From an uncultured Candidatus Binatia bacterium (GTDB lineage Bacteria > Desulfobacterota > Binatia > Bin18): a stretch of DNA of 64,000 nt. The translations under genes and the position numbers were made by a program. Below, piece after piece: positions 37,349 through 40,541 of the stretch; positions within the stretch are counted from its first letter, which is position 1; each line of letters starts with the position of its first letter. The notes below the pieces were generated by a model. That model did no database searches. It worked only from the letters and a program-made list of their open reading frames with translations, and had not been told where the DNA came from. The stretch covers positions 2,848,001 to 2,912,000 of the forward strand of contig OZ243961.1 of the NCBI GenBank assembly GCA_965214605.1, written 5' to 3'.

Positions 37349-38050
37349 TTATCGTTCATCCGTCCCTCGCCCTTGACCGCACACCGTGCAGTCGGGATCC
37401 TTGGCGACCGGCCAGTCGCTGAATCGGAACTGGGGAAACTGACACTCAAAGACCCGGCTGGATGAAGAGGGGCTGAGCCCGACCAGCCATTTGAGGGCTT
37501 CGGTGGCCTGAAATGCTCCCCAAAACAGATCGGCCAGCCGCTCAAACGCTGCTCCCTCCGGTATCCCTCTCCTGTGCTCAGCCGGCAGACACGCCCAGCA
37601 GGCCGCGTCCGGACCGCTCCGGCCCACGAACAAGCGTCGGTGCGAGGTCTGAGCCCAGCTGCAGCACAAGGGGTGGCCGACACTGCCGCAGGAGTCGACG
37701 AGCAGATCGGGCTCGGAGACCACCAGGTCATAGGCAGCGAGCAGTGGCAGTGCCGCCCCGCCTGCGTCATGCCGCACGACGCGACAGTCCGGATTCAAAC
37801 GCTCAAGCGTGGCTACGACCGGGTCATCCGGCTCATCGCTCGCAAAGGCCGAAAATATCGCCGGCCGCCCGCGGCTGCGCAGCCCAATGGTGCCGACTCC
37901 GGCAGCGGCCAGGTACAGCAGGGTCGTTGTCTGGGGGGCGCCGCCGTTGACGAGCACCCTGGCCCGCAGCAGTGTCTCTTGGCCTTTGCCGCCCAGCTGG
38001 GGGAGAATGATTTGGCGGCTATAGCGTTCGATTTGGGCCTCAGACAGCAT
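37349..38050 (-). CDS. ThiF/MoeB-family E1-like protein, catalytically degenerate
   Basis: Keeps ERYSRQIILPQLGGKGQ..L, YLAAAGVG, CWAC, QATEALKWL and CTVC; lacks GxGxxG, SNLQRQ, the Mg-binding Asp and the catalytic-loop Cys. Confidence 0.82.
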   Translation of the reverse strand: MLSEAQIERYSRQIILPQLGGKGQETLLRARVLVNGGAPQTTTLLYLAAAGVGTIGLRSRGRPAIFSAFASDEPDDPVVATLERLNPDCRVVRHDAGGAALPLLAAYDLVVSEPDLLVDSCGSVGHPLCCSWAQTSHRRLFVGRSGPDAACWACLPAEHRRGIPEGAAFERLADLFWGAFQATEALKWLVGLSPSSSSRVFECQFPQFRFSDWPVAKDPDCTVCGQGRGTDER

Positions 38051-38121
38051 GAGAACAGGGTGGTCGAGCCGGGAGGGGGTCTTTAGAATCACATCGGAGT
38101 TCGTGAGACCGGCGACCTGTC

Positions 38122-38397
38122 TTATCCTCCGGCGATTGCCGGGACGATAGAAACCTCGTCACCATCTTTGAGGGCCGTGTCAAGATTGTCTGAAAAACGG
38201 ATATCGTCGCCGTTCACGAAGATATTGACAAAGCGGCGAACATTCCCCTGGTCGTCGCAAATCCGCTCTTTGATCCCCGGGTGGTTCTGTTCGATATTGT
38301 TAACCACAGCAGAGATCGTATTGCCTTCTGCCCTGACTTCTTGGGCACCGCCGGTGAAACGACGAAGGGGGGTTGGTATCCGTACCTGGACACTCAT
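38122..38397 (-). CDS. MoaD/ThiS/CysO-type ubiquitin-like sulfur carrier
   Basis: V.IPTPLR..TGG, HPGIKERI, RRFVNIFVN..DIRF, ends VPAIAGG. Confidence 0.93.
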   Translation of the reverse strand: MSVQVRIPTPLRRFTGGAQEVRAEGNTISAVVNNIEQNHPGIKERICDDQGNVRRFVNIFVNGDDIRFSDNLDTALKDGDEVSIVPAIAGG

Positions 38398-38455
38398 ACC
38401 TGACACCTCCTCATAACTCATACAAGATTTTTCTAACTGTGACGGTTTTCTATGG

Positions 38456-39739
38456 CTAATGCAATTCCGTCGCTCGAACTTTTTCCAGCGGCCTGACCGG
38501 CCCGTCTCGGGTCGCCCGATATAGTGCGTCGAACTCAGCTAGGCGGGCATCTATGGTCTGTGGTTCGGTCAACTGTCCAGCGACGGCTTCGATCGTCTTA
38601 TAGCCGTTGCCGGTAATACAGATCACAATCGACTCGTCGCACGGAATACGTCCCTGCTCAATCAGCTTTTTGGTTACCGCCACAGTCGTGCCGCCGGCCG
38701 GCTCGGTAAAAATCCCCTCTGTGCGGGCCAACAGCTGAATCCCGGCCACGATTTCTTCGTCCGTCGCTGCTTCACCCCAGCCGCCCGACTCGCGGACCGC
38801 CTGCAGCACGTAGTAGCCGTCGGCCGGGTTGCCAATGGCGATCGACTTGGCGATCGTGCGCGGTTTGACCGGATCGATCAAGTCTGTGCCTTTGTGCAGC
38901 GCGCTCACAACCGGCGCACACCCGGCGGCCTGGGCGGTATAGATCTTGGGCAGCTGCCCACCCTCGACTAGGCCGACTGTTTGGAGTTCCTCGAACGCCT
39001 TGGCCACCTTGGGCAAAATCGTGCCGCCCGCGGTTGGTACAACAACGTGCTGGGGGAGGCGCCAGCCGAGCTGCTCCGCAATTTCAAAACCGTAGGTTTT
39101 GGCGCCTTCGGTATAATACGGCCGAATGTTGATATTCACAAACGCCCAGCCGTATGCATCGGCAATCTCACTACACAGCCGGTTCACGTCGTCGTAGTTG
39201 CCACGGATGGCAATCGCCTGCGGACCATAGATTGTTGAGCCCACCACCTTGCCCTGCTCCAGGTCGGCCGGAATAAAAATACAGCAGCGGAGCCCGGCCC
39301 GAGCCGCGTGGGCGGAGACCGAGTTGGCCAGATTGCCGGTCGAGGCACAGGACACCGTCTCAAAGCCAAACTCCAGGGCTTTTGACATCGCGACTGAGAC
39401 GACCCGGTCTTTGTATGAAAACGTTGGATGATTGACCGAGTCGTCTTTGACATACAGTTCATTGAGCCCGAGTGCAGCGGCGAGCCGGTCGGCTTTGACC
39501 AGCGGGGTAAAGCCGCTGTGGAGGCCGATTGTCGGCGGTCGGCTAAGAGGCAGGAGCTCTTGATAACGCCACAGAGAAGCCGGCCGCGCGGCAACGGTCC
39601 GGTGAGACATCGTGCGGCGGATGAGAGCATAGTCATACTCGACTTCGAGCGGCCCAAAACACATTTCACACACATGGACGGGAGTGACGGGGTAGTCCTG
39701 TCCGCACTCACGACAGCGTAAACCGGTAACAGTGTTCAT
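38456..39739 (-). CDS. Threonine synthase-like PLP enzyme (sulfur-carrier-associated clade)
   Basis: CRECG..CEMC Zn ribbon, PTFSYKDR (PLP Lys), CASTGN, GNYDDVNRLCSE, RPYYTEGAKT, ITGNGYK. Confidence 0.88.
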   Translation of the reverse strand: MNTVTGLRCRECGQDYPVTPVHVCEMCFGPLEVEYDYALIRRTMSHRTVAARPASLWRYQELLPLSRPPTIGLHSGFTPLVKADRLAAALGLNELYVKDDSVNHPTFSYKDRVVSVAMSKALEFGFETVSCASTGNLANSVSAHAARAGLRCCIFIPADLEQGKVVGSTIYGPQAIAIRGNYDDVNRLCSEIADAYGWAFVNINIRPYYTEGAKTYGFEIAEQLGWRLPQHVVVPTAGGTILPKVAKAFEELQTVGLVEGGQLPKIYTAQAAGCAPVVSALHKGTDLIDPVKPRTIAKSIAIGNPADGYYVLQAVRESGGWGEAATDEEIVAGIQLLARTEGIFTEPAGGTTVAVTKKLIEQGRIPCDESIVICITGNGYKTIEAVAGQLTEPQTIDARLAEFDALYRATRDGPVRPLEKVRATELH

Positions 39740-39782
39740 ACGTATCCTTCAGGGAGAAACGCTCCGGTCGGTGTATCTCTCC

Positions 39783-40541
39783 TCAATGAGTCTGACACAG
39801 CCCGGCTTCTTCGTAACGTTCGGGCTGGAGGCTGGTGATGGTGGGCAGGGGGCCGCACAGCGGACAGCGTGGGTTGGGGTTGAGGCGGACCTCGCGCCAA
39901 CGCGGAAGCTGGGCATCATAGGTCAGCAGACGATTGGTTAACAGCTCTGGGCTGCCGTTCAAATATTTGACCGCCTCAGTGGCTTGGATGAGACCGAGGC
40001 TGCCGGCGACGCTGCCCAGAACGCCAGCCTCCTGACAGCTCGGAATCTCATCCGGAGAGGGCGCAACCGGAAATAAACACCGCAGGCAGGTGCTTTTTCC
40101 CGGCAGGACGGTGAGGGTTTGGCCCTGAAACTGGACAATTCCGGCGTATGAAAACGGTTTGCCGAGCAAGACTGCGGCGTCATTGATCAGAAATTTTGTG
40201 GTGGTTCCGTCGGTCGCGTCGATCACAAAGTCATAGTCTTGGAAGACGGCGCTCATATTGTTCAGCGTGAGCTGCTCTGGGTAGGTCCTGAGTCGACCGG
40301 TCGGCCGCAGACGGGAGAGCTTCTCGCGGGCAGATTCTACTTTGGGGTGGTGCAGATCGGGTGTGAAATGCAGGATCTGACGTTGTAAATTGGACACATC
40401 GACCACGTCTGGATCAATCAGGCCGATCCTGCCGACCCCAGCCAGAGCCAAGGCGAGGGCCGCCGGACAGCCCAGGCCCCCGACACCGACAACAAGCACC
40501 GACCCACCATCTTTTAGAACGGTATCCATTCCGGCATCCAT
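39783..40541 (-). CDS. ThiF/MoeB-family E1 adenylyltransferase lacking the N-terminal helix
   Basis: VGVGGLG, D.DVVDVSNLQRQ, K, DATD, CLRC, PSCQEAG, QATEAVK, CPLC; no RYSRQ segment. Confidence 0.92.
   Translation of the reverse strand: MDAGMDTVLKDGGSVLVVGVGGLGCPAALALALAGVGRIGLIDPDVVDVSNLQRQILHFTPDLHHPKVESAREKLSRLRPTGRLRTYPEQLTLNNMSAVFQDYDFVIDATDGTTTKFLINDAAVLLGKPFSYAGIVQFQGQTLTVLPGKSTCLRCLFPVAPSPDEIPSCQEAGVLGSVAGSLGLIQATEAVKYLNGSPELLTNRLLTYDAQLPRWREVRLNPNPRCPLCGPLPTITSLQPERYEEAGLCQTH

Follow-up and report, generated by a model that had tools for sequence, protein, structure and literature searches.

Of the described enzymes that activate ubiquitin-like proteins (Ubl), those of the Escherichia coli MoeB-MoaD and ThiF-ThiS systems come closest to the pair of E1-type adenylyltransferase genes analyzed here, E1-A and E1-B, which lie in a 64,000-nt stretch of DNA (the window, meaning this whole stretch) from an uncultured Candidatus Binatia bacterium (GenBank assembly GCA_965214605.1, contig OZ243961.1, positions 2,848,001 to 2,912,000 of the forward strand). 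MoeB and ThiF share fold and chemistry with E1-A, work with a Ubl of the ThiS/MoaD type and use an arginine finger in trans, MoeB Arg14 and ThiF Arg11 acting on the partner's site according to the available part of the source (PMC13139853), as a preliminary description of the locus had held for MoeB. They are homodimers with two active sites, whereas the corresponding features are here split over two genes, leaving at most one complete site per dimer. We give a probability of roughly 75% to the reading that E1-A and E1-B together form a heterodimeric sulfur-carrier E1 with one active site, in which binding between the two is predicted.

Pairs of inactive and active adenylation subunits are known from the eukaryotic enzymes NAE1-UBA3 and SAE1-SAE2, in which the inactive subunit supplies a key Arg (PMC10557695, available text). 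The window pair would resemble them in having a predicted inactive and a predicted active adenylation subunit from separate genes, a pattern with which the sequences, the co-occurrence and a complex model agree, but E1-A and E1-B are bare ThiF domains (233-252 aa) with no inserted catalytic-Cys domain or ubiquitin-fold domain, and their product would presumably be a biosynthetic thiocarboxylate, not a conjugate; no E2-like gene was found among the seven operon proteins scanned. In bacteria, BilD, the E1 of the antiviral Type II BilABCD system, carries fused inactive and active domains with a single site that receives Arg9 from the inactive domain, and all other known bacterial E1-like proteins are homodimeric according to the same preprint, as far as its available text extends (PMC10557695). 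BilD is one polypeptide with a CYS domain, is accompanied by an E2 and a deubiquitinase and serves in defence, whereas the window pair consists of two genes without a CYS domain in a sulfur-assimilation operon. The bacterial parallel to eukaryotic E1s drawn in the preliminary description thus stands for the division of labour, but has to be narrowed in that BilD precedes it and in that the modelled fold of E1-B is nearer to ThiF/MoeB than to NAE1 or SAE1. A third case is the yeast tRNA cyclic N6-threonylcarbamoyladenosine (ct6A) dehydratase Tcd1-Tcd2, a heterodimer of ThiF paralogues with one catalytic centre, in which inactive Tcd1 gives Arg59 to Tcd2, Tcd2 donates no Arg finger to Tcd1, and the R59A exchange had little effect, all as stated in the part of the article at hand (PMC13139853). 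Unlike the window pair, Tcd1-Tcd2 is eukaryotic and membrane-anchored and acts on tRNA without a Ubl.

The gene content of the operon points to a different set of relatives. In the mycobacterial CysO-MoeZ-CysM pathway, a carrier thiocarboxylate feeds a pyridoxal-phosphate (PLP) enzyme. In the Streptomyces set of MetO, MoeZ, MetM and Mec, MetM is a homocysteine synthase that depends on the MetO thiocarboxylate (PMC13759103, Table 2). Like both of these, the window has a gene set of carrier, E1 and PLP enzyme, presumably for homocysteine or cysteine; they use one MoeZ with a rhodanese domain, whereas the E1 here is without such a domain and divided between an active and an inactive protein, and the Ubl already ends in GG. 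Our search of the full-text literature, with subscription-only papers outside its scope, found no account of a ThiF/MoeB heterodimer encoded by two genes and acting in sulfur-carrier metabolism, and the word heterodimer does not occur in the available part of a 2025 review of ThiF-like enzymes (PMC12596934). The principle is already known, and the novelty lies in the setting in primary sulfur metabolism, the division over two minimal genes, an inactive subunit that shrinks and the natural intermediates.

Seven closely spaced minus-strand genes lie between positions 41647 and 34354 of the window, with families assigned to the seven proteins by Pfam and NCBIfam:

40514..41647, minus strand: BamD-like lipoprotein gene (Pfam YfiO, 123.7 bits)
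39783..40541, minus strand: E1-A, ThiF/MoeB-type adenylyltransferase, 252 aa (Pfam ThiF, 228.9 bits)
38456..39739, minus strand: ThrC-like PLP enzyme with an N-terminal Cys-rich ribbon (Pfam PALP; NCBIfam PRK08197, 323.8 bits, cut-off 303)
38122..38421, minus strand: Ubl of the ThiS/MoaD/SAMP type, 99 aa (Pfam ThiS, 67.3 bits; NCBIfam SAMP1, 66.8 bits, cut-off 60)
37349..38050, minus strand: E1-B, by its sequence a ThiF-fold pseudoenzyme, 233 aa (Pfam ThiF, 40.7 bits, cut-off 28.1)
36374..37294, minus strand: CysD, sulfate adenylyltransferase small subunit (Pfam PAPS_reduct, 192.3 bits; synteny in the window's family)
34354..36351, minus strand: CysN-CysC fusion of GTPase subunit and adenylylsulfate (APS) kinase, the last operon gene (Pfam GTP_EFTU and APS_kinase)

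Open reading frames (ORFs), coordinates and family matches agree with the arrangement first proposed, in which two separate E1-family genes, about 1.7 kb apart, flank a PLP enzyme and a Gly-Gly Ubl; the C-terminus of the latter is AGG, with the Gly-Gly immediately before the stop codon. A scan for promoters and terminators found no signal beyond chance inside the operon.

By score and catalytic residues E1-A belongs to the ThiF/MoeB family, and the helix that carries the trans Arg finger (RYxRQ) is not present in it. Its match to Pfam ThiF (PF00899, cut-off 28.1 bits) spans profile positions 22-237 of 238, and it can be aligned to E. coli ThiF and MoeB only from about their residue 28 on (E = 4e-39 to 8e-43). 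The whole active site attributed to E1-A in the preliminary description was found, with G19-x-G-G-x-G24, N51, R54, Q55, K67, D108/D111, C152/C155, C169 and C226/C229 invariant in 24 relatives. Three of its motifs were located by alignment:

40470..40487, minus strand: P-loop GVGGLG, residues 19-24
40377..40394, minus strand: SNLQRQ, residues 50-55, with R54 on the MoeB Arg73 column
40035..40037, minus strand: crossover-loop Cys169 (PSCQEAG)

The absence of the helix, likewise described at the outset, also held when the reading frame was followed upstream, where neither an ATG, GTG or TTG nor an RYSRQ-like motif occurs before a stop 38 codons up (a TGA near 40655). Among the 120 best E1-A relatives (63-100% identity), 119 have the P-loop, at a median start residue of 20, and R-x-x-R-[QH] precedes it in none of these 119; the 120th is an N-terminal fragment. 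E1-A also has a C-terminal tail after the second CxxC, with an extra Cys near the end (e.g. ...EEAGLCQTH; window 39783-39860), and the same tail is found in the complete cluster E1s of relatives and is missing from all E1-B forms. This tail might be a stand-in for the missing rhodanese domain.

E1-B could be aligned over its full length to ThiF (1zfn) and MoeB (1jw9), and showed NG-GAPQ at the P-loop position, a deletion at the SNLQRQ site and no loop Cys, together with retained MLSEAQIERYSRQIIL, the QATEALK dimer helix and both CxxC pairs (Zn). The alignments therefore confirm E1-B as an intact 233-aa ORF (38050-37349) with RYSRQ, dimer helix and CxxC pairs, and confirm the loss of P-loop, SNLQRQ and catalytic Cys; the reported loss of the Mg-binding Asp needs correction, as the D of 'SEPD' in the window copy still sits on that column in pairwise alignments, the column being variable across the E1-B family (SEPD, SGPD, ATTA and others). 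Throughout that family P-loop, NLxRQ, a conserved Asp and the loop Cys are missing, and judged by these residues E1-B is a pseudoenzyme member of the ThiF fold. Its RYSRQ (residues 9-13; 38012..38026, minus strand), in which R12 aligns with the trans Arg-finger column (ThiF Arg11, MoeB Arg14), is invariant in 26 of 26 aligned relatives. The mechanically called ORF begins at a GTG at 38092, and the start was set to the Met at 38050 because all 26 relatives begin at the Met of 'ML..QIERYSRQ'. An AlphaFold 2 (AF2) model of E1-B has a predicted local distance difference test score (pLDDT) of 85.9, and its closest folds are bacterial ThiF/MoeB with a template modelling (TM) score of about 0.75, as in the Foldseek comparison with ThiF 1zud (E = 3.6e-17, TM 0.76).

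Conservation of E1-B is concentrated at its N-terminus. In the 26-member alignment, 17 of the 34 positions in residues 1-34 are invariant, compared with 24 of the 199 elsewhere. A word-indexed search listed 120 E1-B cluster representatives (38-100% identity), among which RYSRQ lies within the first 60 residues of 119, the exception being a read-through fusion with a NIL-domain gene, and neither GxGGxG nor SNLxRQ occurs in any of the 120. When representatives clustered at 50% identity were searched with the E1-B profile, 355 proteins matched at E <= 1e-30, and 48 of the best 150 matches have the Arg motif without P-loop or NLxRQ. The E1-B-like gene is shortened to 119-168 aa in five class families, with R[YF][SA]RQ kept and the C-terminal Zn CxxC pairs lost (L282:3308-3667, L284:10114-10605, L285:5571-6050, L288:735-1241, L289:3140-3595 and L290:10117-10587). 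Since these short forms keep the N-terminal motif, the inactive partner appears to be being pared down to its N-terminal part. Statistically, the pairwise ratios of nonsynonymous to synonymous substitution rates (dN/dS) in 15 genome pairs were 0.14-0.46 for E1-B, 0.08-0.20 for E1-A and 0.04-0.15 for CysD, and because these values are far below 1, E1-B is under purifying selection; its ORF is intact in every cluster examined, and the neutral decay considered in the preliminary description is not what the 15 pairs display. As also foreseen there, annotation does not tell the two genes apart, and the relatives carry generic MoeB/ThiF names ('adenylyltransferase/sulfurtransferase', 'molybdopterin-synthase adenylyltransferase', 'HesA/MoeB/ThiF family') in proteins labelled 'Deltaproteobacteria bacterium', 'Candidatus Binatia bacterium', 'Methylomirabilota bacterium' or 'Thermodesulfobacteriota bacterium'.

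The co-occurrence of the two forms proved strict: in 53 genomes from 16 families of the window's class and in 10 metagenome contigs, E1-B was never missing beside a truncated E1-A (0 counter-examples), and no truncated E1-A without E1-B was seen among the clusters whose contig covers both positions. Within the window's family, the E1-B profile scored >=220 bits in 19 of 19 genomes, compared with <=179 bits in the other 132 of the 151 class genomes, and in all 19 clusters E1-A has no R-x-x-R-[QH] before the P-loop. The family cluster runs BamD, E1-A, ThrC-like, Ubl, CysK/M-like, NIL, E1-B, CysD, CysNC, in which the ThrC-like, CysK/M-like and NIL genes vary. A far more divergent E1-B was found in another family (L257) and, used as query, matched every one of that family's 17 genomes, including an unpublished one that entered the count only; further loci reached through the divergent E1-B had the pair of truncated E1-A and E1-B in 16 of 16 cases. 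The class was also resampled through E1-A, blind to E1-B. With this query nearly every class genome gave two matches, a MoeZ-like gene and the cluster E1, and 18 cluster loci from twelve further families were collected, of which three cut by contig ends (L293, L294 and L298) were left uncounted; all 15 loci with enough contig have a motif-less E1-A and a downstream E1-B-like gene with R[YFW][SA]RQ. E1-B was also present on 37 metagenome contigs, and the 10 of these that reach the E1-A start all have a truncated E1-A.

Some loci fall outside these counts or are incomplete. L156 and L174 show one partner only before the contig ends, and in L166 the Ubl is missing for the same reason; L259, L260, L262 and L263, which have another ThiF + Ubl pair with RYDRQ, and L264, with a ThiF alone, were left uncounted. 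A contig scan with E1-B patterns from the shared N-terminus retrieved ordinary MoeB genes only (29-36% identity), and the E1-B profile gave no match at E <= 1e-48 in 201 genomes of the phylum of G203 (reached via L021), a negative that is uninformative for want of a positive control there.

Clusters with other combinations of E1 genes were found around this group. Three sister families (16 loci) have one cluster E1 only, complete including RYSRQ, with no further E1-A-like match in those genomes, and the E1 is likewise complete in seven single-E1 clusters that belong to other classes of the phylum; these single-E1 loci were first found with a helix-containing profile, which is a source of bias, and the genomes were then searched through E1-A. 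Five clusters from other classes (L122-L126) have two complete E1s each. Within one family of the window's class, L119 combines an E1-A that has RYERQ with an E1-B that has P-loop, SNLHRQ and an altered Cys loop; in L155 the E1-A helix is lost, and E1-B keeps GAGAVG and is without NLxRQ, Asp and Cys; in a third genome of the family (L156) E1-A is complete and the contig ends before the E1-B position. L127 (G020), taken up as a candidate for a motif-less E1-A, was dropped as ambiguous, as its RLPRF retains both Arg. Mapped onto a tree of 58 cluster E1s, helix loss requires no fewer than two changes (bootstrap range 2-3). The E1-B sequences from the window's family form a monophyletic group (100/100) that sits on a long branch, and because of that branch the tree does not settle whether E1-B originated by duplication of E1-A.

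We propose that E1-A and E1-B would combine into an asymmetric dimer of the MoeB type, each contributing one half, and that this dimer would activate the Gly-Gly carrier encoded next to them. E1-A would bind ATP and the Ubl and adenylate the Ubl C-terminus, which would then become a thiocarboxylate; E1-B, unable to bind ATP, would give the second half of the dimer and the helix whose Arg12 enters the ATP site of E1-A. In such a dimer the helix of E1-A would serve the site of E1-B and the helix of E1-B that of E1-A. With the site of E1-B dead, the helix of E1-A would have no task and could be lost, while that of E1-B would have to stay, and the heterodimer is favoured because this is the pattern found, repeatedly. 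A lone A:A dimer is disfavoured because single cluster E1s always keep the helix.

A model of the A:B complex supports binding, with an interaction prediction score from aligned errors (ipSAE) of 0.92 compared with 0.00 for the best of 3 controls, so that the A:B part of the AlphaFold-type check suggested in the preliminary description came out in favour of the pair. Among solved complexes 58 of 80 attain the ipSAE mark, and among mismatched pairs 2 of 110, counts that are rough because our own alignments were used. The model runs share >=87% of contacts, and the pLDDT of the partners is >=85. The predicted interface includes E1-B residues 5, 8-13, 15-16 and 18-19 and, from the SNLQRQ stretch of E1-A (49-56), residues 49-50 and 52-56, each as members of the interface and not as a listed touching pair, and it brings together the long helices of the two proteins (A 172-192, B 168-187). 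Residues invariant in E1-B are more frequent in this predicted interface (16 of 51 positions) than outside it (25 of 182; Fisher p = 0.006).

Several points weigh against the heterodimer. The complex model may owe its score to solved ThiF/MoeB homodimers that the predictor has learned, and any two ThiF paralogues might be superposed in this way; the enrichment of invariant residues is tied to an interface that is itself predicted, and could also arise from conserved helices of the core. Most E1-B loci were found by E1-B search, with only 18 loci sampled blind to E1-B, and the class genomes are kin, so that the 53 pairs amount to few independent events, with 2-3 losses on the tree. By Pfam, E1-A has no rhodanese domain, the sulfur donor of MoeZ-type E1s. 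In addition, the trans fingers MoeB Arg14 and ThiF Arg11 are reported as non-essential in the available part of PMC13139853. This weakens the word 'obligate', which the preliminary description had attached to an A/B heterodimer with one site and which derives from conservation in sequence, not from chemistry; the heterodimer itself is backed by every comparative test that was run, and what counts may be the whole helix and not just its Arg.

The same report, in which TcdA is moreover without the finger (PMC13139853, available text), lends weight to a different view, namely that E1-A alone is a homodimer without an Arg finger and E1-B a non-catalytic accessory, be it a scaffold, a Ubl holder or a regulatory subunit together with the NIL protein. 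In most clusters E1-B is immediately preceded by a NIL gene, and one read-through NIL-E1-B fusion exists, which fits a regulatory role, although no NIL gene was found in the window's 99.99% complete genome and E1-B is still kept there. We consider an E1-A that acts alone unlikely, as it leaves unexplained why the Arg-finger helix is the only part of E1-B kept everywhere and why that helix is kept in single cluster E1s and lost in paired ones. Should E1-B instead partner another ThiF, a candidate would be the complete, full-length MoeZ-like ThiF of the same genome (G000:C1:439850-440554), which also has seven ThiS/MoaD-type genes, given that any ThiF fold may dimerise with another; alternatively, B:B dimers could bind the Ubl without chemistry. 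The MoeZ-like enzyme, however, matches the ThiF profile over positions 1-237, carries an N-terminal helix itself and needs no donor, E1-B is always within an E1-A cluster and not beside MoeZ, and a B:B dimer is disfavoured because its strictly conserved Arg would face a dead pocket, which together make a partner of this kind highly improbable. Hardly credible, finally, is an artefact in which E1-B would be a decaying pseudogene or the E1-A start mis-called: E1-B is weak against Pfam ThiF (40.7 bits) and neither start has a strong ribosome-binding site visible ahead of it, but the E1-B ORF is intact in every examined cluster with dN/dS <0.5, no upstream E1-A start or motif exists, and the short N-terminus recurs in 19 of 19 family genomes and 119 of 120 database relatives.

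For the pathway that the heterodimer would serve, the set characteristic of CysO/MetO-type pathways is present, with a Gly-Gly Ubl, an adjacent E1 and an adjacent PLP synthase, and the same set is found in relatives. The Ubl thiocarboxylate would feed the ThrC-like PLP enzyme (in relatives also, or instead, a CysK/CysM-like one) to give homocysteine or cysteine, and CysD and CysNC of the same operon would activate sulfate. The ThrC-like enzyme is likely the thiocarboxylate-dependent synthase of the pathway, similar to MetM. Three ThrC-family genes exceed the TIGR00260 cut-off in the genome, the operon copy scoring highest (289 bits, compared with 210 and 182), and because the two further ones exist outside the window (G000:C1:1227096-1228064 and G000:C1:1665420-1666400), the operon copy would be free for a thiocarboxylate role. 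No JAMM protein (Mec) was found among the operon proteins scanned with Pfam, no genome-wide search for Mec having been made. The PLP enzyme between the E1 genes varies within the family: it is ThrC-like only in the window, L138 and L142, CysK/CysM-like only in most genomes of the largest genus (L118, L141, L143-L150), and both enzymes occur in L139, L140 and L151.

Related clusters vary in further respects. Immediately upstream of E1-B, most of them have a small NIL-domain gene of about 78-100 aa (for example L125:7509-7751, minus strand; L138:6404-6691; L139:7813-8049), which is absent from the window operon, and PF09383 has no match in the window's genome. In the database protein P0081, from a 942-nt contig, NIL reads through into E1-B with a two-residue join. 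Two genomes that belong to one genus (L266:6127-7516 and L278:2077-3499) have E1-A immediately beside E1-B, the Ubl and PLP genes being absent from between the two. In L297:3971-6597 (G264, contamination figure 8) the ThrC-like and CysK-like genes are in pieces and E1-A and E1-B are intact; the breaks could reflect gene decay or assembly error. L256:6496-6933 holds a 145-aa ORF with a MoeB-like start (RYSRQIILPQVGGKGQ..GGLG..YLAAAGVG) followed by an Arg/Pro-rich stretch, which is probably a frameshifted remnant. The BamD-like gene, within whose end E1-A starts (28-nt overlap, 40514-40541), is a conserved neighbour, lying upstream of E1-A in most loci examined and across most class families; nothing evident connects it with sulfur metabolism, and we do not count it among the pathway genes. 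Elsewhere in the 64-kb window lie two Pfam-confirmed Amidase-family paralogues (10726-12303 and 57800-59248, both plus strand), and a third ORF (44724-46199, minus strand) is amidase-like by translation only.

Accounts of the descent of asymmetric eukaryotic E1s from symmetric MoeB/ThiF-like homodimers usually rest on the end states alone, and a division of labour in a bacterial primary-metabolism system, encoded by two small separate genes and with living intermediates, would make that path testable with simple proteins. In the order of events that we propose, a second E1 would have joined the cluster and its active site then died; the N-terminal helix of the first E1, serving only the dead site, would have become dispensable and been lost at least twice; and E1-B would then have retained mainly its N-terminal part. 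We tentatively suggest, as a possibility at less than even odds, that the class preserves a stepwise record of the passage from a symmetric E1 homodimer to an asymmetric pair of active and inactive subunits, its stages being one complete E1, two complete E1s, a dead second site, repeated loss of the helix, and shrinkage to a cassette of 119-168 residues that would comprise the Arg-finger helix and the first Rossmann elements.

For pathway reconstruction, the generic MoeB/ThiF names mean that two adenylyltransferases would be counted where there is probably one enzyme. The system also bears on the in vivo importance of the trans Arg-finger helix in MoeB/ThiF enzymes: if the stepwise record is true, the N-terminal helix would be indispensable in vivo, though its Arg has been reported as dispensable in vitro. 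NIL domains are ligand-binding in MetN, and the inactive subunit, usually preceded by a NIL gene, may then be a regulatory handle through which the activation of the sulfur carrier would be coupled to methionine status.

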